The notes below the pieces were generated by a model that did not search any database, was not told the origin of the DNA, and saw only the letters and a program-made list of their open reading frames with translations. A program made the translations under genes and the position numbers. Source: an uncultured Gammaproteobacteria bacterium (GTDB lineage Bacteria > Patescibacteriota > Patescibacteriia > GWA2-47-26). From it: a stretch of DNA of 64,000 nucleotides. Where the stretch lies: positions 11,227 through 75,226 of the forward strand of contig CAZHIP010000001.1 of assembly GCA_964532925.1 (NCBI GenBank). The letters are read 5' to 3'. This document shows positions 38,206 through 57,500 of this stretch, one piece after another. Positions within the stretch are counted from its first letter, which is position 1, and each line of letters begins with the position of its first letter.

Positions 38206-38245
38206 TACAAAAAACAGACCGCTCACGCGGTCTGTTTTTATTTCA
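38206..38245. terminator. bidirectional terminator between rnj and the convergent methyltransferase gene
   Basis: aaacagaccgctcacgcggtctgttt with T-runs on both strands. Confidence 0.6.
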
Positions 38246-39182
38246 AGTAAAACGTCGCACTGTCGCCGTCGGCAGAAGCATTTAAATCACGCGCTTGTTT
38301 TTCAAAGTCGGCGATTTCTTTTTTGGTGAACATTGAGTTGGTGGGATTTTGGCCGTATGAATTTTCTGCCATAAGAGGGATTCCTTTTTGGTATTGGATC
38401 GAGCCCCAGAACTGGAAGGCAGAGGAATCAAAGTGGCCAGATGCAAGCTGTAGCCCTGATTGTTCCGCTAATTTTTTAAAGCCATCAACCGTTGGAATCC
38501 AAAGATGTCGCGGTGCATCAAGCTGGACCCAATCGGCACCAAAGGTTTTAAATGCGCGTGTTCCCGTAATAGGGAGGCGGACAATAATGGTTCCGTTTGT
38601 GCTGAGCAATTTTTGTGCTCGGGTTAAAACGGTTGTTGGATTGGGAACGTGCTCGAGTGAATGATCAAAAATAATGACATCAAACTCACCACTGGTTGCA
38701 AAGATATCTTGCTTCAACAGGTTCACCACGCCAACGGTTTTACTTGTCGTTATAAAAGGATCAATGCCTGTGAGATTTTCCAAGCCGTCACTAGCCAAGC
38801 TAACGAGCAAGTGTCCGGCACCGCAACCCACATCTAAAACGCGCGCAGTCTCATCGATGTGGGCCGGATGGAGCCATGTGTAATAGTTGGGGAGTGGAAG
38901 GCCGAGTGACGGCGCATGTCCAAATAAGTAGAGTTCGGCAAGGAATCGCTTGATGAATTTTTTAATACCAGTCAGCGCACGTGGCGTTTCAAACGAGTAG
39001 TAGTCACGTGGGTAAAACGACCCCAAATTTTCGGGGATTGTTTCGAGTGTCAGGCTGCCACAGGCTCCACATTCGCCATAGGTACATGACCCACCAAGTC
39101 CATACATTTGTTCTTGGGCTACAATAGTTTGGCTGGTTGTAGTATTCCCGCAGGCTTTGCAGGCAGAGGTGATTCCTTGCAT
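38238..39182 (-). CDS. class I SAM-dependent methyltransferase with an N-terminal CxxC...CxxC zinc ribbon
   Basis: LDVGCGAGHLL motif I; N-terminal SACKAC...CTYGECGAC. Start at 39182 is uncertain (alternative ATG at 39107); the ORF track's 39395 start would overlap trpS. Confidence 0.5.
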   Translation of the reverse strand: MQGITSACKACGNTTTSQTIVAQEQMYGLGGSCTYGECGACGSLTLETIPENLGSFYPRDYYSFETPRALTGIKKFIKRFLAELYLFGHAPSLGLPLPNYYTWLHPAHIDETARVLDVGCGAGHLLVSLASDGLENLTGIDPFITTSKTVGVVNLLKQDIFATSGEFDVIIFDHSLEHVPNPTTVLTRAQKLLSTNGTIIVRLPITGTRAFKTFGADWVQLDAPRHLWIPTVDGFKKLAEQSGLQLASGHFDSSAFQFWGSIQYQKGIPLMAENSYGQNPTNSMFTKKEIADFEKQARDLNASADGDSATFYLK

Positions 39183-39203
39183 AGTATTGGCAGGTATCCT
39201 ATC

Positions 39204-40196
39204 ATGAAAGACATTAATGTAAACACTTTTATGCGTGCATTTTCTGGTATTCAGCCATCGGGGGATCTTCATTTGGGCAACTATTTTGGTGCGATCAAGC
39301 AATGGGTTGATCAGCAAAACGAGTTTGAGGCACTCTATTGTATTGTCGATCTTCATGCGATTACTGTTCCACAAAAGCCAGAGGAGTTGCGGCATCGTAT
39401 CCGCGAGGTTGCGGCGACGTATTTGGCGGCCGGCATTGACCCAAAGAAGAACATTATTTTCATCCAGTCACATGTACCTGAGCACGCGGAACTCGGGTGG
39501 TTATTGAACACTGTTATTCGCATGTCAGAGCTCGAGCGTATGACGCAATACAAGGACAAGGCGCTTACCAAGGGGGAGAATGTTTCAGTTGGGTTGTTTG
39601 ATTACCCCGTACTCATGGCGGCGGATATTTTGCTCTACGATACTGATGTAGTGCCGGTGGGGCATGATCAGCTCCAGCATGTTGAGCTCGCCTCTGACAT
39701 TGCCAAGCGTTTTAATAAGACCTACGGCCAGACGTTTAAGATTCCGAAGGGAATTATGCAGAAGGTTGGCGCACGCATCATGTCGCTCGATGACCCAGAA
39801 GCCAAGATGTCCAAATCGCAGAAAAACACGATTACCCTCATGGATGATGCGGCCACAATTCGGAAAAAGATTTCGCGTGCGGTGACTGACTCGCAGGGGA
39901 CTATCTCGTATGACAAAAAGCGTCCTGGTATTTCGAACCTCATCGATATTTACCATCATGCAAGCGGCATGGCAATTAGCGACATTGTAGAAAAGTACGA
40001 GGGTCAGGGTTATAAAGAATTTAAGTCCGACTTAGGGGATTGCTTGGTAGAAATGCTCGAGCCTTTGCAAGAAAAAGTTCGTGAATATATGGCAGGCGAC
40101 GAACTCGATCGCATTCTTGCTGATGGTGCCAAACGGGCCACTGAGCTTGCCGAAGCAAAACTGAAAATCGCGAAAGAGAAAATGGGTTTGATGTAA
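39204..40196 (+). CDS. trpS: tryptophanyl-tRNA synthetase
   Basis: FSGIQPSGDLHLGNYFGA (HIGH region) and KMSKS; an alternative start lies at 39231. Confidence 0.9.
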   Translation: MKDINVNTFMRAFSGIQPSGDLHLGNYFGAIKQWVDQQNEFEALYCIVDLHAITVPQKPEELRHRIREVAATYLAAGIDPKKNIIFIQSHVPEHAELGWLLNTVIRMSELERMTQYKDKALTKGENVSVGLFDYPVLMAADILLYDTDVVPVGHDQLQHVELASDIAKRFNKTYGQTFKIPKGIMQKVGARIMSLDDPEAKMSKSQKNTITLMDDAATIRKKISRAVTDSQGTISYDKKRPGISNLIDIYHHASGMAISDIVEKYEGQGYKEFKSDLGDCLVEMLEPLQEKVREYMAGDELDRILADGAKRATELAEAKLKIAKEKMGLM

Positions 40197-40207
40197 ATAT
40201 CTCAATC

Positions 40208-40789
40208 ATGCCGAAATCTTTAAAAAGTTCAAAAAGATTTAAGGCGTTATTCGTCATTGCTGGCTTTATTGTAGGGGTAGTTTTATTGAGAAGCATTTTT
40301 TATGTTCTTATTGATTATCCAGTAGCAAGGTTCATCGGCGTGTTACTGTTGTTTATATTTCTCATTTTACTTACGCCATTGATTTACATAGTGAAAAATT
40401 ATGTAAAATATTCAAAAAAGCCATCAATGGAACAGTCAAAACATGGAAAAAATCCATGGAAAGGTGTCTATATTTCTATTGGATTAGCTCTCGTTATTGG
40501 AGCTATCATTGTTTCCCTAAATGGATTCAGTGATGTCTGGCGGGCGATCCATAATCAATTTAATGTTATTACCGGTACGGTGACTTACTCTGAACGAGGG
40601 GGTCGTAGGGTTGGACGGATCATACAAACAGTAAGGATAAATGGAGATAATGGCTCTGAAGCTAGAGTTACTTATTATCTTTTCCCTCCTTTGCATGCAT
40701 GGGGAGAGCCCTTAAAAGGAAAGCGAGTTAGAGCAATTTACTTACCTCATACTCGGTATGGTGTTAGTTTTGAGATTTTGAATAACTAA
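40208..40789 (+). CDS. hypothetical multi-TM membrane protein in an AT-rich stretch
   Basis: Three predicted TM helices; no recognisable domain; local GC is clearly below that of the flanks. Confidence 0.4.
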   Translation: MPKSLKSSKRFKALFVIAGFIVGVVLLRSIFYVLIDYPVARFIGVLLLFIFLILLTPLIYIVKNYVKYSKKPSMEQSKHGKNPWKGVYISIGLALVIGAIIVSLNGFSDVWRAIHNQFNVITGTVTYSERGGRRVGRIIQTVRINGDNGSEARVTYYLFPPLHAWGEPLKGKRVRAIYLPHTRYGVSFEILNN

Positions 40790-40848: not shown

Positions 40849-41250
40849 CCAGATGACCGGGCGACCGCTGTAGAGCAATCTATAGAGGAAAGTCCGAACA
40901 CCAATTTTGGCGCAAGCCAGAGGAAAACGGTACCATCTAACGGATGGGCAGTCTGACATGGATAACTCTCACGAGGAAACCGTGCTGACGGATTAGTACC
41001 ACAGAGACAATACTAGCTCGAGCGCAAGCTTGGGTGAACGGTGAAAAGTGAGGCGGTGTTACGTTGCGACTCTAAAGGTTTATGCGTGTTGCTACGCCTC
41101 TCGCTCTGCAGTAATGCAGAAACGTGGAAAACCCTACCTGGTGCAAGTCTTTATGACGCATGAGGCTGTACGCGAGTGCAGTCCCAGAGAGATGGTCGTC
41201 CATTTGCTTCGGCAGAGGACAGAATTCGGCTTACAGGTCACCTGGACACC
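40849..41250 (+). ncRNA. rnpB: RNase P RNA (bacterial type A)
   Basis: Conserved P4 strands AGGAAAGTCCG (5') and ACAGAATTCGGCTTA (3'); a GGTACC..TAACGG..GGG region in the P8/P9 position; P1 pairing CCAGATGACC/GGTCACCTGG; followed by a terminator. Confidence 0.8.
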
Positions 41251-41334: not shown

Positions 41335-42717
41335 ATGAAACGCATCGAACTGTTTTTTATGATGTTGCGGGTGCCGGTTGACTATGCGTCAATCCTATTG
41401 GCGGGGATCGCGGCTTATTTTTTGCGATTCCAAACACTCGCGGGGATTCGTCCGGTTATCTTTAATTTGCCTTTTACAGAATTTTTACACCTGATCACAG
41501 CGGTAGGCCTTGGATGGGTTGTGTTGTTTGCTTTCTCGGGGCTGTATAGTCCACAGAGTGGTCGGGGGTTAGGTAGTGAGCTTCGAAAGATTATCTTGGC
41601 CTCATCAACGGGAGCCGCGATCATGCTTGCGGTGCTCTTTTTCTCGCGTGAATTGTTTTCATCACGCTTTATCTTCTTGGTAGCGTGGGCATTTGCGATT
41701 ATATTCCCCATGATTGGGCGGATGTGGATTCGTTTTATAGAATCCTCGATGTATCGAGCCGGTGTTGTCCGCAAACGAGTGGTCATTATTGGTGACACGA
41801 GCGCTGCCACCGCACTTGCGGCAGATTTTCGTACTCATCGAGGTCGCGGCATTGTTGTGTTGTTGACGCTCGACAATTGGAATGCTGAATCGCGGGCAAA
41901 AGTAGAAAAACTCAAACAGCTTGATGATATTTATTGCATGGTGAACTTGTCGAAGCGTGAATCAGAGAGCTTGCTAACCTTTGCAACTGAACACCAGATT
42001 ACTATCATCTATTCAGCAGATCTTTTTTCTACGCAGTCGGCAAACTTGGCATTTTTTACCGCTGCGGGAGTTCCCCTTATTGCTGCACGTCGCACTAAAC
42101 TGGATGGTTGGGGGAGTGTCTACAAACGCTTGTTCGATATCGTCGCTTCGTTCATGTTGATTATTGTTGCGTCTCCCATCATGTTGCTCGTTGCGATTAT
42201 AATAAAACTTGATTCACGTGGTCCGGTATTTTTCCGACATCCACGTGTCGGTAGAGACGGTGTATTGTTTGGCTATCTCAAGTTTCGTTCCATGAAACCA
42301 AACATGCACGAGATGCGGTACAAAGAGTTGGCACATTTGGATATTCGTAAAGGGCCACTCGTGAAGTTTCGCGATCAAGATGATCCGCGCATTACCCGTG
42401 TTGGTCGTGTGCTCCGGAAGACCTCGCTCGATGAACTGCCAGAACTATTTTTGGTACTTTTTGGGTACATGTCATTGGTTGGTCCACGGCCACACCATCA
42501 CGAAGAAGTTGCGATGTATGAACCCAATCAAAAACGGGTGCTCCAGATCAAACCAGGCATGACCGGATTGCCACAAGTCTCGGGCCGAGCCAATCTTTCC
42601 TTTGACGAGGAAGTACAACTCGATAGCTACTACATTGAACATTGGTCCCCATGGCTGGATTTGAGTATTTTGCTCCGCACTATTGGGGTTGTGTTCAAAA
42701 AGACTGGTGCGTATTAA
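41335..42717 (+). CDS. polyprenyl-phosphate sugar phosphotransferase (WbaP/bacterial sugar transferase family)
   Basis: Multi-TM N-terminus and the C-terminal domain KRLFDIVASFMLIIVASPIMLLVAIIIKLDSRGPVFFRHPRVG...MSLVGPRP. Confidence 0.8.
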   Translation: MKRIELFFMMLRVPVDYASILLAGIAAYFLRFQTLAGIRPVIFNLPFTEFLHLITAVGLGWVVLFAFSGLYSPQSGRGLGSELRKIILASSTGAAIMLAVLFFSRELFSSRFIFLVAWAFAIIFPMIGRMWIRFIESSMYRAGVVRKRVVIIGDTSAATALAADFRTHRGRGIVVLLTLDNWNAESRAKVEKLKQLDDIYCMVNLSKRESESLLTFATEHQITIIYSADLFSTQSANLAFFTAAGVPLIAARRTKLDGWGSVYKRLFDIVASFMLIIVASPIMLLVAIIIKLDSRGPVFFRHPRVGRDGVLFGYLKFRSMKPNMHEMRYKELAHLDIRKGPLVKFRDQDDPRITRVGRVLRKTSLDELPELFLVLFGYMSLVGPRPHHHEEVAMYEPNQKRVLQIKPGMTGLPQVSGRANLSFDEEVQLDSYYIEHWSPWLDLSILLRTIGVVFKKTGAY

Positions 42718-42778
42718 GACGCAGGGAAGTGTTTACGGCAGAGGCAAAACGTGGTAAACATACACCACGTTTTTTTGT

Positions 42779-43903
42779 ATGAAAATCGCCCTGGTTCATG
42801 ACTATTTAACCCAAGATGGCGGTGCCGAACGGGTATTGAAGGTCTTTCAAGAGATCTGGCCCGAGGCGCCTATTTTTGTGCTTTTCCACGACAAGTCTCG
42901 CGCACCAAGCGTGTTTAGTGGTCGCAACATTCATACATCCTTTTTACAAAAAGTTCCGGGGGCTATTCGTAAGTACCAGTGGTTTTTGCCGTTTATGCCT
43001 GCCGCCACAGAACATCATAATTTGAGTGAATTCGATGTGGTACTTTCATCGTCGTCTGCCTTTGCCAAAGGAGTGATCACACGCCCCAATACACTGCATA
43101 TTTGCTACTGCCATACGCCGACGCGGTACTTGTGGTCAGATACGCATGAATACGTCGCCGGTTTGCCATACAATCGACTCGTAAAGTGGTTTGTGCCGTT
43201 TCTTCTTACACAGCTTCGTTTGTGGGATCGGTTAACGAGCGAGCGCGTGGATCATTTTATTGCAAATTCAAAAACAGTGGCACATCGTATCCGCAAATAT
43301 TACGGTCGTGAATCTCTGGTTATGTATCCACCGGTCGAGGCGCGCTCGTTCCAGATATCTGATACTATCGGCGATTATTATTTGGCTGGTGGGCGCTTGG
43401 TTCCGTACAAGCGGTTCGATTTGGTAGTGCAGGCATTTAATAAGTTGGGATATCCGCTTAAGATTTTTGGACAAGGCCCAGAAGAAGCAAGGTTGCGTGC
43501 CATGGCTAAGCCGAATATCCAATTTGTGGGCAAAGTGAACGACCAGGATCGGGGAGAGCTGTACCGATATGCGGCCGCGTTTATCCATCCGCAAGTCGAA
43601 GATTTTGGTATTACTGCGCTTGAATCTATGGCATCGGGGCGGCCCGTTGTTGCGTATCGAGCTGGTGGTGCCACTGAAACGGTGATAGATAAGGTAACAG
43701 GTACATTTTTTGACGATCAGTCGTGGCAGGCGCTTGCACATACCTTGGTAAACTTTGACCACAAAGCCTTTGATCCCGAGCAGATCCGTAAGCATGCCAT
43801 GCAGTTTGACGAGGAGCATTTCAAAAAGCAGATCAAGCAGTTTGTCGAAACAGAATATGCTAAGTTTGCGTTTGAGCACGACGCGCGAAACCGGTTGTTG
43901 TAA
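42779..43903 (+). CDS. GT4-family glycosyltransferase
   Basis: MKIALVHDYLTQDGGAERV N-terminus with a C-terminal E-x7-E-type GT-B core. Confidence 0.75.
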   Translation: MKIALVHDYLTQDGGAERVLKVFQEIWPEAPIFVLFHDKSRAPSVFSGRNIHTSFLQKVPGAIRKYQWFLPFMPAATEHHNLSEFDVVLSSSSAFAKGVITRPNTLHICYCHTPTRYLWSDTHEYVAGLPYNRLVKWFVPFLLTQLRLWDRLTSERVDHFIANSKTVAHRIRKYYGRESLVMYPPVEARSFQISDTIGDYYLAGGRLVPYKRFDLVVQAFNKLGYPLKIFGQGPEEARLRAMAKPNIQFVGKVNDQDRGELYRYAAAFIHPQVEDFGITALESMASGRPVVAYRAGGATETVIDKVTGTFFDDQSWQALAHTLVNFDHKAFDPEQIRKHAMQFDEEHFKKQIKQFVETEYAKFAFEHDARNRLL

Positions 43904-43909
43904 TCTCGT

Positions 43910-45046
43910 ATGCGCATTGTTATCGATGGTCGTCCGCTCATGTGGCACTTGGGGGGTGGTGTACCTGTTTTTACCAAAGAAATTATACATGCACTTGCGA
44001 GGCAAGGTGATCATGAGCTCATGCTTTGGCAAAATGCTTGGAGCAAGCTTTCTTTCGGACCTTTGCCAGTCTCGGTAACAATGAAGCAGACGCATATACC
44101 AAACAAAATACTGAATCCGCTGTTGCGCATTGCTCAGTGGCCAAAGATAGATGCGCTGACGGACGAAGCAGATGTCTTTTTTCTTCCAAACTTGAACTTT
44201 ATTTCTAAGCCAAAACACGGCAAAGTCGTTGTGACCGTGCACGATCTTTCCTTTATTCGCGCACCGCATTTTTTTAACCTGAAGCAACGGCTGTGGCACA
44301 AGGCACTGAACGTCGGGAAGCTTTTTGAAACCGTTGATCATATTGTCGCGGTATCACAACACACGAAGGATGATCTCCTGGAGCTTTTTCCTAAGATTCA
44401 TACCGACAAGGTCAGCGTGATCGGTATTGGTATTGATGTGCCAACAGTGTCTGGTGGTGAAATTACGAAGGCACAAGAAACATATATTCTTACAAAACCC
44501 TACATCTTGCATGTCGGGACACTCGAGCCGCGCAAAAACATCGTGAATCTCATGCGCGCATTTGAGACTGTGGCTAATTCGTACGAATTAGACCACTATG
44601 ATTTAGTCTTGGTTGGTGCCAAAGGCTGGGGATGGAAGGATGTCGAGCGTGAACACCAAAAGAGTTCAGTGAAAAATCGCATTAAAATTCTCGGCAGTAT
44701 TCCGGATGCAGATAAGCACGCACTCATGGCTGGCGCAAAACTGTTCGTCTATCCGTCGTGGTACGAGGGTTTTGGCATCCCGCCACTCGAAGCCGCTGCC
44801 CACGGCGTGCCAGTGATTGCCAGTTCAGTGACTGCAATGCCAGAAACATTGGGAGATAGCGCACTGCTTGTTAACCCGTGGGACGTTGCAGGGCTTGGTC
44901 AGGCAATGGTTGCGATGATGAGCGATGATGTATTGCGCGCTCGATATGCTGCGAAAGGCAAAGAACGCGCCGCGCATTATCGCTGGGAAGATGTCGCACA
45001 TCGATTGGTAAAAGTATTTGAAAATAGGTACAGTACCTTCTTATGA
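43910..45046 (+). CDS. GT4-family glycosyltransferase
   Basis: GT-B fold with FVYPSWYEGFGIPPLEA (EX7E motif). Confidence 0.75.
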   Translation: MRIVIDGRPLMWHLGGGVPVFTKEIIHALARQGDHELMLWQNAWSKLSFGPLPVSVTMKQTHIPNKILNPLLRIAQWPKIDALTDEADVFFLPNLNFISKPKHGKVVVTVHDLSFIRAPHFFNLKQRLWHKALNVGKLFETVDHIVAVSQHTKDDLLELFPKIHTDKVSVIGIGIDVPTVSGGEITKAQETYILTKPYILHVGTLEPRKNIVNLMRAFETVANSYELDHYDLVLVGAKGWGWKDVEREHQKSSVKNRIKILGSIPDADKHALMAGAKLFVYPSWYEGFGIPPLEAAAHGVPVIASSVTAMPETLGDSALLVNPWDVAGLGQAMVAMMSDDVLRARYAAKGKERAAHYRWEDVAHRLVKVFENRYSTFL

Positions 45047-46203
45047 AAATCGCCATAGACGCCAGACTGTATGGTCTCAAGAACAGAGGTCTTGGGCGTT
45101 TTTTAATTGAGCATTTGAAGGGCCTGGAGTCAGTCGATGAACAAAACTCGTATTCAGTGTTTTTGAAAGAAGAAAATAAGGACGAGTATCAGCCTGCCAA
45201 AAAGAACTTTGTAAAAAAGATCTGGAATACGCCGTGGTATTCATTGAAAGAGCAGACTGATACCAAGGTCTTAAAAGAAGAGCAGGCCGACCTCTATTAC
45301 TTCCCGCACTGGAATGTGCCGATGCTCCTCGGGAAGCCGTATGTGGTGACGATCCATGACATGATTTTGTTTGATTTCCCTGATCGTCGCGCAAGTACGC
45401 AGAGTTGGTTGCGGTACAAACTGAAATACGTCGCCTTTCGCATGCTCATGGGAGCGGTACTTCGTCGTGCCAAGGCGGTCGTGGCTGTTTCCGGCTCAAC
45501 ACGCGACGCGATTTTGAAGCATTTTCCGAACACGAAGCATATTCAGGTCATCTACGAAGGTGCTCCTGAGCTTGCTCCATCGGAAGTGGTTAACCTGGGG
45601 AAGCATGGAATTCAAAAACCATATATACTATATGTAGGTGCGGCGTATCCGCATAAGAATTTGCCGTTCCTCCTGCGTTCGTTCCAAGAAGCGCGAAAAA
45701 CGATTGATTGTCAGCTCGTACTCGTCGGCCGAAAAGACTTTTTTTATGAGCGATTGGCATCCGATGCTGCGCGCTCAGGAATTGATAAAGATGTAGTCTT
45801 TTTTGGCGGCGCAACCGATGGTGAACTTGCGTATCTCTACGAGCATGCACACATGGCAGTCAGTCCGTCGCTGGTTGAAGGGTTTGGGTTTGGTGGACTT
45901 GAGGCAATGACAAAGGGTATTCCTGTTGTTGCTTCTCGGATCTCATGTTTTCGAGAGATTTTCGGAGATGCTCCGCAGTACTTTGATCCAACAAATGAAC
46001 ATGATTGTGCGCGTGCACTTATTTTGGTTTCTCGAGACGAGTCCGCGCGTACCAGCATGATTCAGGTAGGAAACACTATCCCGGTGCGATATAATTGGAA
46101 GAAGAGTGCAGAAGAATATACACATCTTTTTGAACGTTTGGTAAATAACAAGAGCGATGGAGGGTCAACACCACAACAAACGAGCGGTTCGCATCACGCG
46201 TAA
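45043..46203 (+). CDS. GT4-family glycosyltransferase
   Basis: MKIAIDARLYGLKNRGLGRF N-terminus; AVSPSLVEGFGFGGLEAM (EX7E); overlaps the previous gene by 4 nt. Confidence 0.75.
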   Translation: MKIAIDARLYGLKNRGLGRFLIEHLKGLESVDEQNSYSVFLKEENKDEYQPAKKNFVKKIWNTPWYSLKEQTDTKVLKEEQADLYYFPHWNVPMLLGKPYVVTIHDMILFDFPDRRASTQSWLRYKLKYVAFRMLMGAVLRRAKAVVAVSGSTRDAILKHFPNTKHIQVIYEGAPELAPSEVVNLGKHGIQKPYILYVGAAYPHKNLPFLLRSFQEARKTIDCQLVLVGRKDFFYERLASDAARSGIDKDVVFFGGATDGELAYLYEHAHMAVSPSLVEGFGFGGLEAMTKGIPVVASRISCFREIFGDAPQYFDPTNEHDCARALILVSRDESARTSMIQVGNTIPVRYNWKKSAEEYTHLFERLVNNKSDGGSTPQQTSGSHHA

Positions 46204-46282
46204 GGGAGTACAACCCTCACCGCACGTTATTCATTTGGGTAGATCAAAAGAGCGTGTTCGTGTGCAAAAGATAGAGAAACCA

Positions 46283-48400
46283 ATGGCACCACCGCGGTCG
46301 CTGGCCATCGAATTTGCCATTGATTCATTCCGCAATGAAATGGCGGATCGCGCTCGCAATGCGTTTCAGCAATTCAATCGCACGGCAAGTCGTGTTCGTT
46401 CTTTTGGTTCCCGTTCGTTGCGCAAAAAAAGAGAATTACTTTCGACCACAGAAGCATTGGTAGATGCTATGGTTCCAGTGCTTGAGCATGTAAAAGAGGT
46501 GGCAGAAGAGAAATTGTCCTTGCGAAAACGTGTTGCGACCTGGCTTGCGAGTCGGGTGACCACCGCGCATATTTATGTACCACCACGCTCACTTTCGATT
46601 GCCTTTTTCGTGGCAATGCTTGTATTGCTTACCTTGCCATTTGGAGTGATTCACGTATATCGCGATGTAAAGGTGCGCCAAGCTGAATTTAGGGAGAGAA
46701 AGATTGTTATGGTTGCGCTTTCCGACCAGGTAAGTACCTCATTGCGTACCGGTGACCTGGAGGGAGCGTTGCGTGCGCTGCATGCGCTCGAAGAGTCGGT
46801 GCAGGCAGCAGCAGATGCGATTGATGCAAGCGGTGTATTCAAATATGCGCCACCATTGCACCAAACACAGAACGCGTTGAAATCCGCTGTTGCGGCGCTT
46901 GGTCAAGGAAGAGTTGCTTTGGCAGGCGTACAGCGTTTTCCGTGGAATAAAGATGTGTTTATTGCAATAACCAAAACTCTTGATGCTGCAGAGAGGACTG
47001 CGTGGTACGTGGATCGCACTCGCATGGGCATTGATACAGGCCCAGCAAAGAGCTATATTCGTCTCGCAAAAGATAACCTCATGCTTGCGCAAGCATTTTT
47101 GGGGCAGCAAGACAGTCGGTATCTTGTCGTATTTCAGAACGAGAATGAGATTCGGCCGACCGGTGGTTTTATGGGCAGTTTTGCCGTGCTGACTCTCAAA
47201 GACGGTGTGTGGTCAATCGAAATGCCGTCGCAAGGATCATATGCACTTCAGGGGTGGCTCACTACTGCAGTCCGTGCGCCGCGACCATTATCACTCATCA
47301 ATCCGCGGTTTGAGTTTCAAGATGTAAATTGGTTTCCAGATTTCCCTACAACAGCAAAAAAGATTATGTCGTTTTACGAAGATGGGGGAGGGTCGAGTGT
47401 CGATGGGGTCATTGCGGTCAACAGTTCATTTTTAAATGATGTGTTGGCGTTGGCGGGGCCGCTCGATGTGAAAGAGATTAGCCCTGTAGCACTCAAGAAC
47501 GGTACCGTGGTTGAGGCGCTCGAAAAAGCCATTGCACGAGATCGTGCTACCACTGCGCCAAAAGCAGTAATGGGAGGTCTTCTTGATGCGCTTGCCACGC
47601 GATTTCAGTCAGGTGCGGTTGCGCCAATTGCTGCTGCTCGTCTTGCTGCCATTGGTCTTAGTGAAAAAAAGATCCAGCTATATTTCCGTGATGATTCCAA
47701 TCAGTCGGCTGCAGCACGATTGGGTTTTGATGGAGGTATTCCTCGTAGCGGAGATAAGGATTTTTTCATGCTTGTTTCGGCAAATGTTGCTGGAGGTAAG
47801 ACAGATGGTTCCATTCACGATGTCGTGGGCTATAAAGTATCGGTGAACGAGAATGGAGAAATGGTGGCTCATGTGACCTTGACGCGTACCCACGAAGGTT
47901 TGCGTGGAGATGCGTTGCGAGGCGGCAGAAATGTGAGCTATGTTCGGCTGTATGCCCCCTTAGGCAGTGAGTTTTTAGGGGCCAGTGGTTTCAGCAAAGC
48001 TCCTTCATGGCGATTTGAAAACCCTGAATCAACGCTCATTCCCGACGAAGATGTTCGTGCGTCAGAACTTACCGAAAAGATAGACACCAATAGTGGTACA
48101 ATTATTGCAACAGAATCGGGGAAGCAAGTCTTTGGAAACTGGTTCATACTCGACCCTGGAGAAGTAAAAACCGTACAACTTAGGTATCTGTTGCCAAGCC
48201 GTATTACCAAAGACATGCAGAATAAGTATGCGCTTATGGTTGCCAAGCAATCAGGCCGTACCACGGACTTTCATTTTACGATGAATGCACCAGGGTTTAC
48301 TATTGTCGCTCTAGACTCCCAGGAAACAAGTCGTGAGGGATATGCAATGAAACGCGCATTGACGACCGATAGTATTACTCGATTGGTGCTTACACCATAA
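46283..48400 (+). CDS. DUF4012-like membrane-anchored envelope protein
   Basis: Single TM helix then a large extracytoplasmic domain containing VFQNENEIRPTGGFMGSFAV, which I recall as DUF4012-like. Start set at the ATG at 46283, after the upstream stop. Confidence 0.45.
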   Translation: MAPPRSLAIEFAIDSFRNEMADRARNAFQQFNRTASRVRSFGSRSLRKKRELLSTTEALVDAMVPVLEHVKEVAEEKLSLRKRVATWLASRVTTAHIYVPPRSLSIAFFVAMLVLLTLPFGVIHVYRDVKVRQAEFRERKIVMVALSDQVSTSLRTGDLEGALRALHALEESVQAAADAIDASGVFKYAPPLHQTQNALKSAVAALGQGRVALAGVQRFPWNKDVFIAITKTLDAAERTAWYVDRTRMGIDTGPAKSYIRLAKDNLMLAQAFLGQQDSRYLVVFQNENEIRPTGGFMGSFAVLTLKDGVWSIEMPSQGSYALQGWLTTAVRAPRPLSLINPRFEFQDVNWFPDFPTTAKKIMSFYEDGGGSSVDGVIAVNSSFLNDVLALAGPLDVKEISPVALKNGTVVEALEKAIARDRATTAPKAVMGGLLDALATRFQSGAVAPIAAARLAAIGLSEKKIQLYFRDDSNQSAAARLGFDGGIPRSGDKDFFMLVSANVAGGKTDGSIHDVVGYKVSVNENGEMVAHVTLTRTHEGLRGDALRGGRNVSYVRLYAPLGSEFLGASGFSKAPSWRFENPESTLIPDEDVRASELTEKIDTNSGTIIATESGKQVFGNWFILDPGEVKTVQLRYLLPSRITKDMQNKYALMVAKQSGRTTDFHFTMNAPGFTIVALDSQETSREGYAMKRALTTDSITRLVLTP

Positions 48401-48410
48401 GTACGAAGAC

Positions 48411-50189
48411 ATGACCGACCAAAAACCACCCAATACAACATTGCGTTCAATTTACGAAGAAGATGGTACGCTCCCAGATATGAGCAAGCTTGATCCAAAA
48501 GGGGACCCGCGTTGGGCAAAATCATTTGGGTATTTTGTGGGTATTTTAGTGTTAGGTACTGCGGTAGCCTGGCTTGGTTTTCGTTTGTTTATACCCTCAA
48601 ACCCTGGAGATGTTGTCTTGGTCAAAATTGATGCACCTGAACATGTAACTGCAGGAGCAAAAATGAAGATCGTGCTTCATTATGAAAACAATGATCGTAG
48701 TCCGCTCGCCCTCGCGGTACTGAAGGCTCGTCTTCCCAAAGAATTTGTTCCTGAAAGTGCTTTGCCACGTTCCGACGATGACACTCTGACCAGCTGGACA
48801 CTCGGTACACTGGATCGTGGGGCCAAAGGGGATATCGAAATCCAAGGCCGTGCATTGGGTGCCATTGGAACGAACGCTCAAATCCAAAGTACTCTCACCT
48901 ATAAGCCAGCATCGTTCAACGCAGAGTTTACGTCACTCGCAAATCGTAGTTTTGTGATCGATACTGCGCCGATCGAGATCACGTTTGATGGTCCGAGTGA
49001 GGCGAGTGCTGGGCAATCAGTGGTGTTTACCGTGCGCTACAAAAATACGAGTGATGCGGCCCTTGCAAATACGCAGATTGTCTTTATCCCCGGCGCATCA
49101 TTTTCTGTAACAAAAACCAGCAAAAAACCGTTACATGATACGACATGGGCATTGCCAGCACTCGAACCAGGTGCGGTTGGTGAAATGAGTATTACTGGTG
49201 CGGTGACATCATCTGCCGAGGTAGCCACAGTGTTGCCGTTTCAAGTTATTACGCAAGTGAAACGAGAAGATATTGTGTTGGCAAAAGCTGCATACGAACT
49301 TACAGTAACTCAAGGGGATCTCGCGCTATCTATCGAACGCGACGACACAGATCCTGTGCGCATGGGCGATACTATTTCTGGTCGCATTATCGTAGCAAAT
49401 AACTCAAGTGTGCCCATCGGCGATATCAATATTCAGCTTACAAGCCCAAACTCAATTGATTGGGGTATGGCAACATCTGCGGTGAAAATATCTTCAAGCA
49501 AAGGTGGTGTGGCCTGGAGTGGGTCGGGTGTTGAAAAGTTAAAGCTTTTGCCTGCTACTGAACGTTTTTCTATTCCATTTACCATAAAAGCACCCGCAAC
49601 CACGGACCTTTCCGAAGTGGTTTTTTCTGCAAGCGCTAAGGCGTTGAAGCGCAACAATACAGCGGCAATACTCATTGCAAAGAGCGCTGATTTTTCTATT
49701 GCGATAAGTTCACATATTTCAGCCGACGGTGTTGCAATGTATTATGATATGTCGGGCTTACCCGTGGGTGCTGGACCATTACCACCCCGAGTAGGCGAAG
49801 AAACAAAATATCGCGTTCAATGGAAAATTAAAAATGGATCACGTGATTTGGCGGACGTAACCCTTTCTGCTCTTCTGGGGGAAAATGTCGTGTTTGGTAC
49901 AAAGCAGGGGGTGGGGGCAGGTGCAATTATATTTGATGCCGATACTCGTACGGTGCGTTGGGCAATGAGTCGTCTACCCTCGAATGTCTCGGAAGTCATA
50001 GCTCAATTTGATGTAGTGCTAACTCCGGTGACGAATGACCAAGGTAAGACGGTTGAGCTTTTGGCTAAAGGAGTACTAACAGCAACCGATCCACTTATTA
50101 CTGATCCGGTCAACATAGAGATTCCTCATCTGACAACTGATCTTGTGCGTGACCAAAAAGCAGTTGGGCGAGGTGTTGTCTTACCTTAA
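48411..50189 (+). CDS. membrane-anchored surface protein with repeated DUF11-like beta-sandwich domains
   Basis: N-terminal TM anchor then at least four repeat units, each with a T/S-rich beta pattern (e.g. ...TVRYKNTSDAALANTQIVF...). Confidence 0.5.
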   Translation: MTDQKPPNTTLRSIYEEDGTLPDMSKLDPKGDPRWAKSFGYFVGILVLGTAVAWLGFRLFIPSNPGDVVLVKIDAPEHVTAGAKMKIVLHYENNDRSPLALAVLKARLPKEFVPESALPRSDDDTLTSWTLGTLDRGAKGDIEIQGRALGAIGTNAQIQSTLTYKPASFNAEFTSLANRSFVIDTAPIEITFDGPSEASAGQSVVFTVRYKNTSDAALANTQIVFIPGASFSVTKTSKKPLHDTTWALPALEPGAVGEMSITGAVTSSAEVATVLPFQVITQVKREDIVLAKAAYELTVTQGDLALSIERDDTDPVRMGDTISGRIIVANNSSVPIGDINIQLTSPNSIDWGMATSAVKISSSKGGVAWSGSGVEKLKLLPATERFSIPFTIKAPATTDLSEVVFSASAKALKRNNTAAILIAKSADFSIAISSHISADGVAMYYDMSGLPVGAGPLPPRVGEETKYRVQWKIKNGSRDLADVTLSALLGENVVFGTKQGVGAGAIIFDADTRTVRWAMSRLPSNVSEVIAQFDVVLTPVTNDQGKTVELLAKGVLTATDPLITDPVNIEIPHLTTDLVRDQKAVGRGVVLP

Positions 50190-50250
50190 CTATCTATATA
50201 ATGTTTTTGCTGTTTCAGCAGGAGCGTCTGCTGAAACTTCCTATATCCAT

Positions 50251-52617
50251 ATGGCAGATTTTTTGAGCGCACTCTCTTCTTCGCGGTCTAGGCGGACGAT
50301 AAAACCTAAGCGTGTAATCCCGGCTTCTCATGAAGGTAGTGATGAGGAGATGCGTTTGTCTGACGCGACGAATCCCGCAAGTGCGCCGCCACGATTAAGC
50401 CGTGCGTTGTTTGTGGTGCTCATCACACTGATTGTGGGTGTAGTGACAATTCCGCTTGCCTATATGCCTAAGGCACTCGCAATTTCTGAATGGCTCCGTC
50501 AGACCATTCTTTTTGGTGTTGCATTAGTTGGGTTGGTGGCCACCTTAGTCCACATTGTTCGTCGGAAGTCACTCAGTCTTCCGCGCCAATGGTTCACATT
50601 CGCACTCGTTGGGGGCGTTTCGCTCTCAGCAATAGTGAGCGCGCTGATGAGCAAGACTCGCTATTTGTCATTGTATGGATATGATGGGGTTGAAGGGTAT
50701 GCGGCAACTACCTATGTTGCTGCAGCGATTGTGATGATATTGGTTGCTATTATTGGTCATGAGCGACGCAAGCTCTACTATGCCTGGCTTACCGGTGGAG
50801 CAGTGGTAATGGGTCTTTCGGTGCTTTCTTTGTATCATGTGAATGTCTTTCCTGGGGTTGGTATTTCGAGCTGGACACCTTTTGGTGGCACATTGGCACT
50901 GGTCGTTATGGCAGCTCTTACGATTGTCGGGTCATATGGTGTTCTCACGGAGTATCGACCATCGCGTGCACTGTATGCCATAGCAGCCCTTGCTGCCCTC
51001 TGTAGTTTTATCGTTCTTATTTCGGTGAATAATCGGTATGGGTTTTTAGTGCTTGCTGGTGGATCTCTTGTCTTTTTGATTGGTGCAGCATTTCGAAAAG
51101 AAGAGATTTTGTCGAGATCAATGATGGCGCCGTGTATCGGCCTGTTTCTTTCGATTGTCTATTTATTTATGGCAATCCCGAGCATTGTGTCTACGCCGCT
51201 CGAGGTGAATATATCTCTCAAAGAAAGCGTGCGAGTTGCAGGTGCAGCACTGCATGCAAATCCAGTCTTTGGGTCAGGGCCAGGAACGTACGCCAATCAG
51301 TTTTTACGTTTGCGTGGTGCGGAGGTCACTCGCCAAGGCTTTGGTAATATTGATTTTCACAGTGGCGCAGGGATGGTCCTTACTCTGTTGGTTACTGTTG
51401 GTATTTTTGGGGGTCTCCTTTGGACAGCGCTGGTGCTCTGGTCATTATGGATGAGCGGTAAAGGTATTGTTCGGGATCGCCGAACAGGGTCCTATCTAGC
51501 GATTCAGTCTGTTTTGTTTACGGTACTTGTTGCTACGTTGTTTTTACCTGTCAGCCCCACTATCTTGTTTACCGCCGTACTGTTTCTCGGCTTGAGCCTT
51601 GCAGAAGGCACGTATCGCGAGATTTCCATGGCTCGCTCTGAGCGTGGAATAGCACTTCGTAATGGTGCTGTTGCACTTGTGTTACTTATGCTTGTTATTG
51701 GAACGGTCGTGGTAGTGCGAAGAACAGGCGGAGTATATTTTGCGCTCCGTGGTGCTCGTGCATTTGCACAAAATGCCCCCACTGCTATTGAGGCCATGAC
51801 AAAGGCTATCGTATTTGATAACGGTCATGATGGTTACTGGCGAATGCTTTCTGATGCACGGCGGACACAATTGAACACGGCAAGCGCTCAGCTAGGCAGC
51901 GGTGATGTTACGCCAGAAGCAAAGACAGCGCTGCAATATATGAGAGCTCAAATGCTCGATGCTGCAACTCGCGCGACAATGTTGGCACCAGGTTCGGCGC
52001 TGAACTGGGCGACGCTTGGCCAGGCAAAACTGGTTTCTGGGGCGTCTAATCAAGATGCACTCACCGACGCGCACAGTGCGTTTGGGCGTGCACAAGAATT
52101 AAACCCTACAGATCCAGGCGTGGTCACAGCGCTCGGTGTTACCGAGCGGCTTCAGGCATTCGTGAGTGCAAAAGGTGAGAAGCCTGATAATACCAAAGCA
52201 GTTGTGTTACTCGAGCAGGCAATTGCATTACAACCTGCGTATGTACAGGCGCACTTAGAATTGGCCCGTTTGTATGCTTCGTCTCTTGAGGAGGAGAAGG
52301 CGTTCGTTGCATATGGTAATGCTCGCTTGGCGGCGCCATATGATCCGCGGGTTGCCTATGAGGTTGCTATGTATTTGCGCGAAGGTAAGAAAACCGTAGA
52401 AGCAATTGCCGAACTTGAGCGTGCGGTGAAGCTTGCACCAAATTTTGTGGATGCTCACCTGGTACTGTCTGATCTCTATGTCTTTACAGGTGATTATGCG
52501 AACGCCATTCTTCATACAGAAGCCTTATTGAAACTCTACCCAGACAGCAAAGAACTTCAGGCTCGGCTTGAATCGTTGAAAGAAAAAGCCGCCGCACCAC
52601 CAAAGAAAAAGAAATAA
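50251..52617 (+). CDS. O-antigen ligase/polymerase-like multi-TM protein with C-terminal TPR repeats
   Basis: About 10-12 TM helices over the first ~470 aa, then TPR-like repeats (AHLELARLYASSLEEEKA, AYEVAMYLREGKK..., AHLVLSDLYVFTGDYANA). Confidence 0.55.
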   Translation: MADFLSALSSSRSRRTIKPKRVIPASHEGSDEEMRLSDATNPASAPPRLSRALFVVLITLIVGVVTIPLAYMPKALAISEWLRQTILFGVALVGLVATLVHIVRRKSLSLPRQWFTFALVGGVSLSAIVSALMSKTRYLSLYGYDGVEGYAATTYVAAAIVMILVAIIGHERRKLYYAWLTGGAVVMGLSVLSLYHVNVFPGVGISSWTPFGGTLALVVMAALTIVGSYGVLTEYRPSRALYAIAALAALCSFIVLISVNNRYGFLVLAGGSLVFLIGAAFRKEEILSRSMMAPCIGLFLSIVYLFMAIPSIVSTPLEVNISLKESVRVAGAALHANPVFGSGPGTYANQFLRLRGAEVTRQGFGNIDFHSGAGMVLTLLVTVGIFGGLLWTALVLWSLWMSGKGIVRDRRTGSYLAIQSVLFTVLVATLFLPVSPTILFTAVLFLGLSLAEGTYREISMARSERGIALRNGAVALVLLMLVIGTVVVVRRTGGVYFALRGARAFAQNAPTAIEAMTKAIVFDNGHDGYWRMLSDARRTQLNTASAQLGSGDVTPEAKTALQYMRAQMLDAATRATMLAPGSALNWATLGQAKLVSGASNQDALTDAHSAFGRAQELNPTDPGVVTALGVTERLQAFVSAKGEKPDNTKAVVLLEQAIALQPAYVQAHLELARLYASSLEEEKAFVAYGNARLAAPYDPRVAYEVAMYLREGKKTVEAIAELERAVKLAPNFVDAHLVLSDLYVFTGDYANAILHTEALLKLYPDSKELQARLESLKEKAAAPPKKKK

Positions 52618-52624
52618 TAGCAGA

Positions 52625-52656
52625 TAAAAACCAGGCTACAATAGCCTGGTTTTTTG
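52625..52656 (+). terminator. Rho-independent terminator closing the glycan locus
   Basis: aaaaa-ccaggctacaatagcctgg-tttttt. Confidence 0.7.
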
Positions 52657-52682
52657 ATATCCATATCTCAGCGCCACGCTCC

Positions 52683-52754
52683 TGCTCCCGGGCCGATTTG
52701 AACGGCCATCACTGCCTTCGGAGGGCAATACTCTATCCGTTGAGCTACGGGAGC
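52683..52754 (-). tRNA. tRNA-Gly (anticodon UCC); no encoded CCA
   Basis: Reverse complement GCTCCCG-TA-GCTC-AACGGATA-GAGT-A-TTGCC-CTCCGAA-GGCAG-TGAT-GGCCG-TTCAAAT-CGGCC-CGGGAGC-A is a canonical cloverleaf. Confidence 0.9.
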
Positions 52755-52771
52755 AAAGGTATAGTGCCTAG

Positions 52772-54500: not shown

Positions 54501-57500
54501 TTAGCATTTGATGCCGATCCAGACTGGTGCGCTATCGACTTCAACGGTTGCCCCAAAGTCGGCAGGGGTTTCGGCATCAACAATTGTAATGTTTGTAGCC
54601 AATGTGCCTTTTGTGAGCTCTGCATTGAAGTGTTGTATGGCATGTACCACCATCTCATTTTCGCTCTGGATGAGAATACCAACGCGATCTTGTGGCGTAA
54701 GGCCTGCTTTTTTGCGCGTGTCGTTGATCTGGCGCGAGAGTTCGCGGACCAGCCCAAGCTCGGTGAGTTCTGGGGTGAGAACGATGTCCAAACCAACCGT
54801 GGCTTCGCTAACAGCCTTGTTGGGCCATGATTCTGGGATAGATTTCAGAAGTTCAACTTTTTGCACATTTACTTCATCGGCGACAATTTCCAAAAGTTCT
54901 TCTGAGAGTTTGGTGCCGGTAACTGCCAAAGAGGCGAGTGGTTGGCGGACCTTCATTTTGTTTTCGGCGCGCAACGAGTGTGCGGCTTCGACAATGGCAC
55001 GGACAGTGTCCATCTCGTGAACAATTGTAGTGTTCGCGTGTTTTTTGTTTGCAGTTGGCCACTCACTCAAGTGAACCGATTCTTGTTCGCCACCAACTTC
55101 TTGGTACATATGTTCTGCGAGGAATGGAGTGAACGGTGCCAAGAGTTCGGCAAGTGTTATAAGTGCGTAGCGAGTGGTGGCAAGTGCAGCATCTTTATCA
55201 GCACCTTCATCTTTGAAGCGGTCGCGTGAGCGACGCAAGTACCAGGTTGAGAGGTCGTTAATGAATGGTGCAAATAATATTGCGGCCTGACGTACTTCGT
55301 ATTTTTCAAGTGCTGTCGTGGCTTCGGCTACCAGCTCGTTCAGTTTTGCAAGAATCCAGACATCAAGCGGATGCTTCGTGCTCGGTTGTTTGTCTGTATT
55401 TTTTGTTGCGTACATTTGGTAGAACGAGAGCACGTTGCCGAGTGTCATGAGCACACGGTTCATGTCACCAACGCCGCGGTCGGAGAATCGAGATTCTTCG
55501 GCCTCAACGGATGGAGAGGTGAGGAGATAGAGGCGCAGCGCATCAGCGCCGTATTTGTTTATGATCTCTTCGGGTTCTGGATAGTTTTTGAGGCGCTTGG
55601 ACATTTTGCGACCATCTTCGGCGAGTAAGATGCCGTTGACAATACAGTTTTTGAACGATGATTTTCCAAAGAGGGCAACACTAAGCACGAGCATGGTGTA
55701 AAACCAGCCACGCGTCTGATCAATACCTTCCGCAATGAATTCGCCGGGGAAAGAATGTTCAAAACCAGCCTTGTCTTCAAATGGGTAGTGCTTTGAAGCA
55801 TACGGCATGGCACCCGATTCAAACCAGCAGTCGAGTACTTCCTCGATGCGAGTCATTGTTCCGCCGCAACTCTTCTCGCACGGCCACGTCACCGCATCAA
55901 TTACGGGGCGATGTAGGTTGATTTCGCCAGCCTCGTTTACGAGTGTACCAAGAAACGGAATCTCAATAGGTGTCGCAAACTCTGGATACGTAAGGTCCTG
56001 TACACCATGTGCCGTTTTTGCGCTCATTGCCCACAAAACCATGAGGAGTGGGTCGCCATGCGAAACAATCAAGATCGTTTCGTTTTCGTGACCAGCATCA
56101 ATTGCCTTGATTGTTGTCATCATGCGCACCACCAGTTCTGACCAGGTTTCATTTTCGCCAATCTTTTTTTGGAAGCGTTCTTCTTGGACGGAGAATTGTG
56201 ATTGGTGCGCGCTAACTGGTTTGCCGTCAAAGCCAGGTAAGTTGAATTCGTGTAATCCAGTGTTTGTTTCTACAGGTAAGCCTAATGTTTCAGCAACAAT
56301 GGTGGCAGTTTCTTGCGTGCGGAAAAATGGTGAAGCAATGATCTTGGTGACGCCTTTGGTTTTTAATTCCTCACCAGCTTTTTTTGCACGAGCCTGACCA
56401 TTTTTTGTCAGCGGATATTGAGCGCTTGTTTCAAGTGATGCACTAATAACATCTTGAGTGTTTGATTCGCTTTCACCGTGACGCATGAAGATAAACGTAT
56501 TGCGCTTGGTGGCCTTTTTGAGGAGTGTCTCGACGGATGGAACACACTCGACGTGTTTGCATTCGTTACACTGCCAGACGGGTAGCGGTGTACCCCAGTA
56601 GCGGTTACGGGAAATTGCCCAATCGCGTGCTTCGCTAATCCAGTTACCAAAACGACCGCCACCAACATGTTCGGGCACCCAGTTGATCTTTTTATTTGCC
56701 GTTACGAGGTCATCGCGCATTTCGGAGACGCGGACAAACCATGTGTCGATGGCCTTATAGAGAAGCGGGCTATCACAGCGCCAGCAGTGTGGATAGGAGT
56801 GAGTTGTTGTGGTTTTATGGAGGAGCTTTTCGCCCAGAGCCTCCATGATAAGTGGGTTGGTCTTTTTGAAAAACATGCCTTCGTATGGCGCGACAAGCTT
56901 CGTGAAGTGGCCGTTGCCATCAAGCGGATCAACCATTGGAATATGATTGGCAGAAGCGAGTTTGAAGTCATCTTCGCCAAACGCTGGAGCAATGTGGACA
57001 ATGCCCGTACCATCTGTCGTCGTGACGAAATCTGCAACGTGCACTTTGAATGCACCTTCGCTTGCTTTGTCAGCAAAGAAACCAAAGAGTGGCTCGTAGG
57101 TGATGCCAGCTAGAGTAGAGCCTTTTCGTTCTGTAAGAGCTTCGTATTCGCCAGGGAACGATGAAAGGCGATCTTTTGCTACGATGAGTTGTTCACAATT
57201 TACCACAATAGTGGTGTAAGTGATGTCAGCCCCAACCGCCAATGCCATGTTCGCAGGCAATGTCCATGGAGTGGTGGTCCAGGCTACGAGGTATGTTGGT
57301 TTCGAGAATTTTTTGTCGGTGATTTTAAATTTTACAAACACGGCCGGGTCTTGCACGTCGCGGTATGCACCTGGTTGGTTTACTTCAAAGTTTGAAAGCG
57401 GGGTTGCGCAGCGTGGGCAGTAGGGAAGCACTTTGTTGCCTTTGTAGATTTTTTTGTCTTCGTGAAGGCGTGAGAAAACCCACCAGATGGACTCCATAAA

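Follow-up and report, generated by a model that had tools for sequence, protein, structure and literature searches.

Organisation of the locus

The window analysed here, a 64,000-nt stretch of contig CAZHIP010000001.1, carries a candidate envelope-glycan locus at 41335-52617, where seven open reading frames (ORFs) lie on the forward strand and all run in the same direction, as an earlier note made from the letters of this DNA had described. The first encodes a WbaP-type polyprenyl-phosphate sugar-phosphate transferase (PGT; 41335-42717, 460 amino acids) and is followed by the genes for three GT4 glycosyltransferases, GT4a (42779-43903, 374 amino acids), GT4b (43910-45046, 378 amino acids) and GT4c (45043-46203, 386 amino acids). 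Next come a single-pass protein with a DUF4012 domain (46157-48400, 747 amino acids) and a membrane-anchored protein with immunoglobulin (Ig)-like repeats, the DUF11-like protein (48411-50189, 592 amino acids). The seventh gene (50251-52617) encodes 788 amino acids and is referred to as TM/TPR, for the transmembrane (TM) helices and C-terminal TPR repeats of its product. Its membrane domain (residues 1 to approximately 507) is encoded at 50251-51771, and the TPR domain (residues approximately 509-781), together with a Lys-rich tail, at 51775-52617. The mechanical ORF of this gene starts at a TTG at 50143; the ATG at 50251 is that of the gene call on a near-identical contig, L001, and was used throughout. 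Near-identical contigs, L001 among them, are present in two public metagenome runs. They were identified through GT4b, which is identical on L001; an exact look-up of the DUF4012 protein gave no match.

The overlapping stops and starts reported earlier are found at two junctions, GT4b/GT4c (4 nt, with the GT4c start on the GT4b stop) and GT4c/DUF4012 (47 nt), and not at the others, where the genes are separated by 61 nt (PGT to GT4a), 6 nt (GT4a to GT4b), 10 nt (DUF4012 to DUF11-like) and 61 nt (DUF11-like to TM/TPR). Both 61-nt spacers contain a predicted RNA hairpin. That behind the PGT gene (42746-42777, + strand) resembles a terminator or attenuator, folding at -14.4 kcal/mol (z -3.76) and being followed by seven U residues. 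That ahead of the TM/TPR gene (50212-50237, + strand) has 11 base-pairs and no U-tract; the fold of 50186-50255 has an energy of -17.9 kcal/mol (z -2.71). The block closes, as had been proposed, with a strong intrinsic terminator at 52626-52655, in which a GC-rich hairpin is flanked by A5 and T6, so that it is bidirectional and assigned to no strand. Its energy is -17.8 kcal/mol (z -5.95), none of 200 shuffled sequences folded as well, and it faces convergent tRNA-Arg and FemAB genes. The left border is formed by the bacterial RNase P RNA (40849-41249, + strand, 159 bits), which has its own hairpin terminator, and the right border by the convergent tRNA-Arg(CCG) on the minus strand (52682-52755).

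Predicted assembly of a lipid-linked oligosaccharide

The PGT matches PF02397 (Bac_transf) over the whole of the model (positions 1-179 of 179, E 7.7e-63, 211.7 bits against a cutoff of 27) and also matches CoA_binding_3 (PF13727, E 1.6e-9). It scores 377.4 bits with TIGR03025 (the EPS_sugtrans subfamily, cutoff 295.55), and residues 81-460 align with solved WbaP structures (E 6.6e-57). There are four hydrophobic segments near the N-terminus and one at residues 272-290, giving an architecture of four N-terminal TM helices, a CoA_binding_3-like domain and a re-entrant helix joined to the Bac_transf catalytic domain. The sugar-specific equivalog models remained under their cutoffs (WcaJ, 325.9 against 410.75; WbaP, 310 against 403). 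The assignment of this gene to the polyprenyl-phosphate sugar phosphotransferases was upheld by Bac_transf and TIGR03025.

The three GT4 assignments were likewise borne out. Each protein contains both Glycos_transf_1 (PF00534, 88-100 bits against a cutoff of 26.4; E 2.7e-26, 1.6e-28 and 5.4e-25 for GT4a, GT4b and GT4c, respectively) and Glyco_transf_4 (PF13439, 33-48 bits against a cutoff of 28.5; E 1.7e-12 in GT4b), and no TM segment was predicted in any of them. The nearest solved relative of GT4a is the WbaZ-1 mannosyltransferase fragment (E 3e-17). Of the genes in the cassette, GT4a also matched its counterparts in other species most strongly, full-length copies giving phmmer E-values of about 1e-110 to 1e-164.

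Judged from the well-characterised families to which they belong, the PGT would transfer sugar-1-phosphate from a UDP-sugar onto polyprenyl phosphate, and the three soluble GT4 enzymes (GT-B fold) would add one sugar each, producing a polyprenyl diphosphate oligosaccharide of about four residues. Homology shows the PGT and the GT4 enzymes to be the predicted builders of this intermediate at the cytoplasmic face of the membrane. Synthesis of a lipid-linked oligosaccharide, as suggested in the earlier note, follows from what is established for Bac_transf and GT4 proteins.

Conservation of the cassette

When species-representative genomes were scanned with a DUF4012 alignment, 591 relatives were obtained, and 79 of the best 80 loci were analysed by phmmer and hmmsearch with the window proteins as queries. 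The homologs carry names such as Patescibacteria, Uhrbacteria, Magasanikbacteria and Parcubacteria, and it is on these names and on synteny that the assignment to the Patescibacteria is based. Among these 79 Patescibacteria species loci the first six genes form a cassette of conserved order. The DUF11-like gene lies directly 3' of the DUF4012 gene and on the same strand in 65 of 77 loci, with a median gap of 6 nt, and is a conserved partner of the DUF4012 gene. A GT4 gene is found directly 5' of DUF4012 in 56 of 67 loci, and the PGT gene is no more than 10 kb away in 38 of 50. In seven of the 77, the Paceibacteria-type loci L014, L037, L042, L054, L062, L074 and L087, a MurJ-family gene takes the place of the DUF11-like gene, and is followed by LepA in the locus scanned.

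The genes that flank the cassette in the window also match the order in related loci, with RNase J and tryptophanyl-tRNA synthetase (TrpRS) upstream; the downstream genes, on the opposite strand, include FemAB, RuvA and an IleRS-like aminoacyl-tRNA synthetase of class I. The conserved order and the same housekeeping neighbours point to a core envelope pathway rather than a variable O-antigen island; the cassette is a vertically inherited core locus, unlike the hypervariable O-antigen and capsule islands. Since order, neighbours and sequences have all been kept from one species to another, the envelope glycan produced is most probably a conserved, "common" one and not a strain-variable antigen. 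Other clusters of neighbouring genes that were considered as further conserved members (c20, c21, c38, c78, c355, c6, c7, c16, c15 and others) proved to be housekeeping genes, including RecJ, RNase H, a P-type ATPase, MiaA, ThrRS, RNase III and NusB.

Two variants of the arrangement were observed. In eight loci (L012, L014, L054, L062, L066, L074, L081 and L087) a protein of approximately 205 amino acids, with up to three predicted TM segments and no Pfam match, is encoded between GT4a and GT4b; six were counted among the seven MurJ-type loci, and the window lacks this insert. In L008, a 57%-identical relative, the order GT4-DUF4012-CLIPPER-TM/TPR-FemAB is retained, and a reverse-transcriptase fragment (RVT_1, positions 208-744) lies directly 5' of the GT4 gene ahead of DUF4012; in this relative the cassette may be broken in its upstream half.

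The DUF4012 protein and its Ig-repeat partner

The DUF4012 protein matches PF13196 almost completely (profile positions 2-141 of 144, E 9.7e-28, 97.9 bits against a cutoff of 28), and the same domain was present in all 376 homologs found. It has one TM segment, at residues 147-165, and the motif NENEIRPTGGFMGSF is present in its sequence, so that the single-pass DUF4012-like protein of the earlier note is confirmed on each count. In a second motif near the N-terminus, SPHV..L, residues S21 and L27 are shared by 90% or more of 36 homologs; because this motif is conserved, the upstream start at 46157 is supported as the real one.

The AlphaFold2 model (pLDDT 79.6) consists of a disordered cytoplasmic tail which includes SPHV..L, the TM helix, an external helical bundle (residues ~166-315), an alpha/beta core (residues ~318-530, with the Pfam match at 318-457) and C-terminal beta-sandwich domains (residues ~535-747). 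The same 36 homologs share 48 invariant columns, rich in D, E, R, K and H and including E331, R333, D389, D395, D416, K469, D535, K548, D550, H579 and R597. About a dozen invariant charged or His residues cluster in the alpha/beta core and the first beta-sandwich. This pattern looks like a putative active or ligand-binding site.

Fold searches by two methods listed structures of the LCP (LytR-CpsA-Psr) family as weak matches to the DUF4012 model. The corresponding comparison of sequences gave no such relationship: there was no match to Pfam LCP (PF03816), no LCP chain appeared in the PDB profile search at E<=10, and hhalign against LCP profiles, built from the LCP gene of pNZ4000, its homologs and four PDB LCP sequences, gave a non-significant probability of below 1%. 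One aligned segment pairs VDGVIAVNssfLndVLalaGPL with VDYFISINMEGFKDLVDAVGGI, which starts VDYFISIN and ends GGI. We therefore reject DUF4012 as a sequence homolog of LCP proteins and retain the possible resemblance, at the level of a modelled fold, as a lead rather than a finding.

The partner of the DUF4012 protein has a single N-terminal TM segment (residues 39-57) followed by four repeats, at residues 68-184, 187-299, 303-438 and 442-591, in keeping with the Ig-repeat protein of about 590 residues originally described. In profile self-comparison the hhalign probabilities were 99.7% (repeats 1 and 2), 96.7% (1 and 3), 95.9% (2 and 3) and 73.5% (1 and 4). The match to DUF11/CLIPPER (PF01345) is a whole-protein one (E 4.5e-10, 40.3 bits against a cutoff of 24.6) in which no single stretch passes alone. 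A Lys-Asp-Asn triad forming an intramolecular isopeptide bond has been described in DUF11 domains, many of which are without it, and CLIPPER/DUF11 repeats are typically the stalks of surface proteins (PMC12617251).

DUF4012 is known as a family enriched in the candidate phyla radiation (CPR) (PMC6744442), and in the exopolysaccharide cluster of Bifidobacterium longum, where it adjoins the priming transferase, its product is annotated as an "auxiliary protein" (PMC5412050). No function for DUF4012 was given in the literature searched, in line with the earlier description of the three large membrane proteins as poorly characterised. The two proteins could be purely structural, serving, for example, as a co-polymerase, an export scaffold or an envelope or S-layer-like anchor, with the LCP resemblance a coincidence. 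The non-significant LCP profile comparisons, the dominance of the helical bundle and beta-sandwiches in the model, the usual role of CLIPPER/DUF11 repeats and the Bifidobacterium annotation all suit such a role. However, a pattern of 48 invariant columns, about a dozen of them charged or His, is one expected of an active or ligand-binding site more than of a scaffold, and a non-enzymic role for the pair is judged improbable.

The TM/TPR protein

The product of the seventh gene has about 12-13 hydrophobic helices followed by TPR repeats, several of which score above their gathering thresholds. Because the basic N-terminus is taken as cytoplasmic and 13 TM helices are counted, the TPR domain is predicted to be extracytoplasmic. 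The best membrane fold match of the membrane domain is WaaL, and the domain has the features that define the GT-C_B fold, with some 12 TM helices and a long external loop preceding TM10. That loop bears the motifs E318-V-x-P-S and G341-S-G-P-G-T-F/Y.

Sequence searches gave a different result. No match to Wzy_C (PF04932) was obtained at E<=10 with the protein itself, with 14 homologs or with 10 TM-only sequences, whereas a real lactococcal Wzy, from pNZ4000, was detected by the same model with E 2e-10. The membrane domain had no NCBIfam match and no match in the PDB profile search, and hhalign with full-length Escherichia coli WaaL returned a probability of 0.05%. A profile of 87 family sequences (residues 205-455) did align with a fragment of the Cupriavidus and E. 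coli WaaL proteins (pairwise E 0.0019), with GSGPGT(F/Y) opposite GVGVGQF and T-x-G-x-x-G opposite T-T-G-I-P-G. Membership of the Wzy_C/O-antigen-ligase family by sequence was therefore rejected, and relatedness at the level of fold and motif was retained. Of the earlier description of an approximately 790-residue protein, the many TM helices and the TPR repeats stand, and the Wzy/O-antigen-ligase-like label was recovered by no domain scan.

The family conserves a set of polar residues of its own, among them K83 (R/K in 100%), N/D260, E/D318 (90%), K/R/H355 (98%) and N360 (92%); the subclade to which the window protein belongs departs from the family at T360, G365 and F265. At E<=1e-3 the family has 14,608 representatives, mostly of about 800 amino acids.

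A proposed pathway and its alternatives

We hold with moderate confidence that the locus encodes a lipid-carrier-dependent envelope-glycan pathway of the Patescibacteria (CPR), composed of the conserved six-gene cassette and a lineage-specific seventh gene. Beyond the cytoplasmic steps, a MOP-family or MurJ-type flippase encoded elsewhere would carry the lipid-linked intermediate outward. The DUF4012 protein and its Ig-repeat partner would take the glycan off the lipid carrier and deliver it to the wall or to a surface protein, a role suggested by the possibly LCP-like core and the invariant charged, pocket-like residues. The TM/TPR protein, as a remote relative of WaaL and Wzy, would polymerise the glycan repeat units or transfer them to an acceptor held by its TPR domain. 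A more specific version is doubtful. It proposes a "common envelope glycan" pathway throughout the Patescibacteria, in which DUF4012 is a diverged LCP-like transferase passing the glycan, with its Ig-repeat partner, from polyprenyl diphosphate to peptidoglycan or a surface protein. TM/TPR would be the founder of a new GT-C_B family, acting with a MurJ-family flippase and having the WaaL scaffold with Lys83, Glu318, Lys/Arg355 and Asn360 in place of the Arg/Arg/His set.

Several observations weigh against the proposed pathway. There is no flippase, chain-length regulator (Wzz or polysaccharide co-polymerase, PCP) or sugar-nucleotide synthesis gene in the locus or in the 64-kb window. A flippase was looked for elsewhere in the window and no candidate was obtained; apart from TM/TPR no protein there has 10 or more TM helices, the multi-TM candidates checked being FtsK and a pilin-like protein. 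The treatment of the locus as one unit, as in the earlier note, is weakened in three respects. Given the terminator-like hairpin behind it, the PGT gene is possibly apart from the other cassette genes. In six loci the PGT gene, together with GT4a and/or GT4b, is inverted relative to DUF4012-DUF11, which suggests two modules and calls into question the seven genes as one unit. Lastly, the TM/TPR gene is near the cassette in only one of the 79 other species loci (L010, from an Uhrbacteria genome, where it occupies the same position), and so its link with the cassette is perhaps only positional; it was found beside the cassette only in the window, the 57%-identical relative and L010.

The catalytic residues of WaaL provide a further difficulty. 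R191 and R265 of WaaL (7TPG) bind the phosphates of undecaprenyl diphosphate, and H313 activates the acceptor (PMC10920833). In the alignment with TM/TPR, R265 falls opposite a gap and H313 opposite position 373, which is I, V, A or S in the 87 family members; R191 falls at a variable position, where alignment confidence is low. Catalysis by TM/TPR, in which the membrane domain has no Pfam or PDB sequence match and the WaaL Arg-265 and His-313 have no conserved equivalents, is putative.

The MurJ genes bear on the link between TM/TPR and the cassette. Three of the four distant TM/TPR homologs examined (P0006, P0008 and P0014) are encoded 5-15 nt upstream of MurJ-LepA (loci L004, L005 and L092) with no cassette nearby; the fourth, P0005, is close to neither MurJ nor the cassette. 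As MurJ follows both DUF4012 and TM/TPR homologs in sister lineages, it is the recurrent neighbour which links the two sets of genes. MurJ is also the lipid II flippase, and for that reason its adjacency may be mere conservation of gene order in a streamlined genome, which again counts against the pathway as proposed. TM/TPR could lie outside the functional cassette and be tied to MurJ and peptidoglycan, or to another lipid-linked pathway, its place between the DUF11-like gene and FemAB in this lineage being incidental, with DUF4012 and its Ig partner forming the complete extracytoplasmic machinery. The single adjacent copy among the 79 other loci, the three MurJ-LepA homologs, the hairpin-bearing 61-nt spacer ahead of the gene and a family far larger and wider than the cassette arrangement all favour such a separation. 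Against this, MurJ also follows DUF4012 in the Paceibacteria-type loci and so joins the two sets. The 57%-identical relative and an Uhrbacteria genome have the same arrangement as the window, and the TM/TPR gene is co-directional, with no terminator between it and the DUF11-like gene. We consider the separation of TM/TPR from the cassette rather unlikely.

A further alternative is O-linked protein glycosylation, which corresponds to the S-layer-like glycosylation given as possible in the earlier note. The known O-oligosaccharyltransferases PglL and TfpO belong to the Wzy_C/WaaL superfamily, and among membrane folds TM/TPR matches WaaL best; it could act as a PglL/TfpO-like enzyme transferring the glycan en bloc onto the Ig-repeat protein or onto type IV pilins recruited by its TPR domain, with DUF4012 as an accessory. 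A short glycan fits the approximately four encoded sugars and the lack of Wzz, TPR domains are protein-binding modules, a conserved surface Ig-repeat protein is encoded alongside, and pilin glycosylation in Patescibacteria has been predicted and is still unexplored (PMC11623550). Nevertheless, 78 of the 79 other loci have no TM/TPR gene near the cassette, although the DUF11-like gene is kept, the equivalents of the catalytic His and Arg residues of WaaL are not conserved, and no glycosylation sequon or evidence of an acceptor was obtained. Such an O-glycosylation system is judged unlikely.

Comparison with known systems

The Wzx/Wzy pathways, for example the WbaP-initiated O-antigen of Salmonella and the cps locus of Streptococcus pneumoniae, resemble the present locus in having a large WbaP-type PGT, several co-directional GT-B genes and a multi-TM protein of the WaaL/Wzy (GT-C_B) fold. 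The locus differs from them in lacking Wzx, Wzz/PCP and sugar-nucleotide genes, in a multi-TM protein which is outside Pfam Wzy_C and is without the conserved Arg/His set, in being core-conserved and syntenic rather than hypervariable, and in the DUF4012 and Ig-repeat pair, which is missing from the classical systems. Compared with WaaL itself (CAZy GT121; PDB 7TPG and 7TPJ), TM/TPR has no equivalents of Arg-265 and His-313 and conserves K83, N/D260, E/D318, K/R355 and N360 instead, and it has an extra (13th) TM helix and an external TPR domain of approximately 270 amino acids. To our knowledge there is no lipid A-core in this monoderm-like lineage, which is a further difference from the setting of WaaL.

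The PglL/TfpO O-oligosaccharyltransferases with PglB/PglC-type priming, known from the pilins of Neisseria and Pseudomonas, offer a plausible working analogy, in that they combine a Bac_transf primer, a few glycosyltransferases and a membrane enzyme of the Wzy_C superfamily, by which a short lipid-linked glycan is passed to surface proteins. TM/TPR, in contrast, is outside Wzy_C by sequence, and its TPR domain is absent from the known enzymes. LCP proteins (Cps2A and TagT/U/V) share with the DUF4012 protein a single-pass topology, an extracellular alpha/beta domain and a position beside the priming transferase of a polysaccharide cluster. The DUF4012 protein is much larger than these, with its added helical bundle and beta-sandwiches, and has no significant similarity to them by sequence or profile; the LCP Arg and Asp residues could not be mapped onto it. 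A genetic parallel is the eps cluster of B. longum 105-A (cpsD - DUF4012 - wzz; PMC5412050), in which DUF4012 is directly beside the priming galactose-phosphate transferase, much as it is clustered with the PGT here. Unlike the window, that cluster has Wzz, a flippase and a polymerase, is strain-variable, and is without a DUF11-like partner or TM/TPR.

In the literature searched there was no description of a cassette combining DUF4012 with an Ig-repeat protein, of the missing Wzx/Wzz or of a WaaL-fold family without the WaaL catalytic residues. These three features are new, whereas the logic of lipid-carrier-dependent glycan assembly is of a known kind. The CPR, or Patescibacteria, is a very large, mostly uncultured and episymbiotic radiation in which the composition and assembly of the envelope are largely unknown, and glycosylation in Saccharibacteria has been called unexplored (PMC11623550). 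A glycan cassette conserved in order and position in many species suggests a shared and probably important envelope polymer, and gives a list of genes for experiment: the PGT, the three GT4 genes, DUF4012, its Ig-repeat partner, the WaaL-fold/TPR protein and MurJ. If the roles proposed for DUF4012 and TM/TPR are true, two large families of unknown function would gain one, and the membrane glycosyltransferases which use lipid diphosphate-linked sugars would gain a family with a different set of catalytic residues.

Other features of the window

A protein of 193 amino acids with three TM segments is encoded ahead of the RNase P RNA (40208-40789, + strand). Neither Pfam nor NCBIfam matched it, none of the 80 related loci contained a homolog, and it was dropped as a cassette member. 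Upstream of it, an ORF of the TrpRS/TyrRS type (39108-40196, + strand, from a TTG at 39108) overlaps a methyltransferase ORF on the opposite strand (38238-39395) by nearly 300 nt. The gene calls on contig L001 are shorter (330 and 314 amino acids), so that this overlap is an artefact of ORF listing.

On the other side of the locus, the minus strand at 54501-57941 encodes the IleRS-like class I aminoacyl-tRNA synthetase (1146 amino acids; tRNA-synt_1, Anticodon_1 and DUF5915), in which a His_Phos_1 domain (E 5.9e-30) is inserted at residues 484-646 and splits the catalytic domain. The insertion is also present in the 57%-identical relative and in three of nine near-full-length (>900 amino acids) Patescibacteria orthologs; proteins with it are about 1150-1170 amino acids long and those without it about 950-975. 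A tRNA-Ile with the anticodon UAU lies at 23393-23464 (- strand). In most bacteria AUA is decoded by a CAU tRNA that carries lysidine, and the UAU anticodon may for that reason be a sign that TilS-type decoding has been lost. Finally, a protein of 520 amino acids with a type IV secretion system pilin domain (PF18895, E 3.5e-6) is encoded at 31507-33069 on the minus strand, and beside it, at 33072-33869, lies the gene for a DsbA-like thioredoxin protein.

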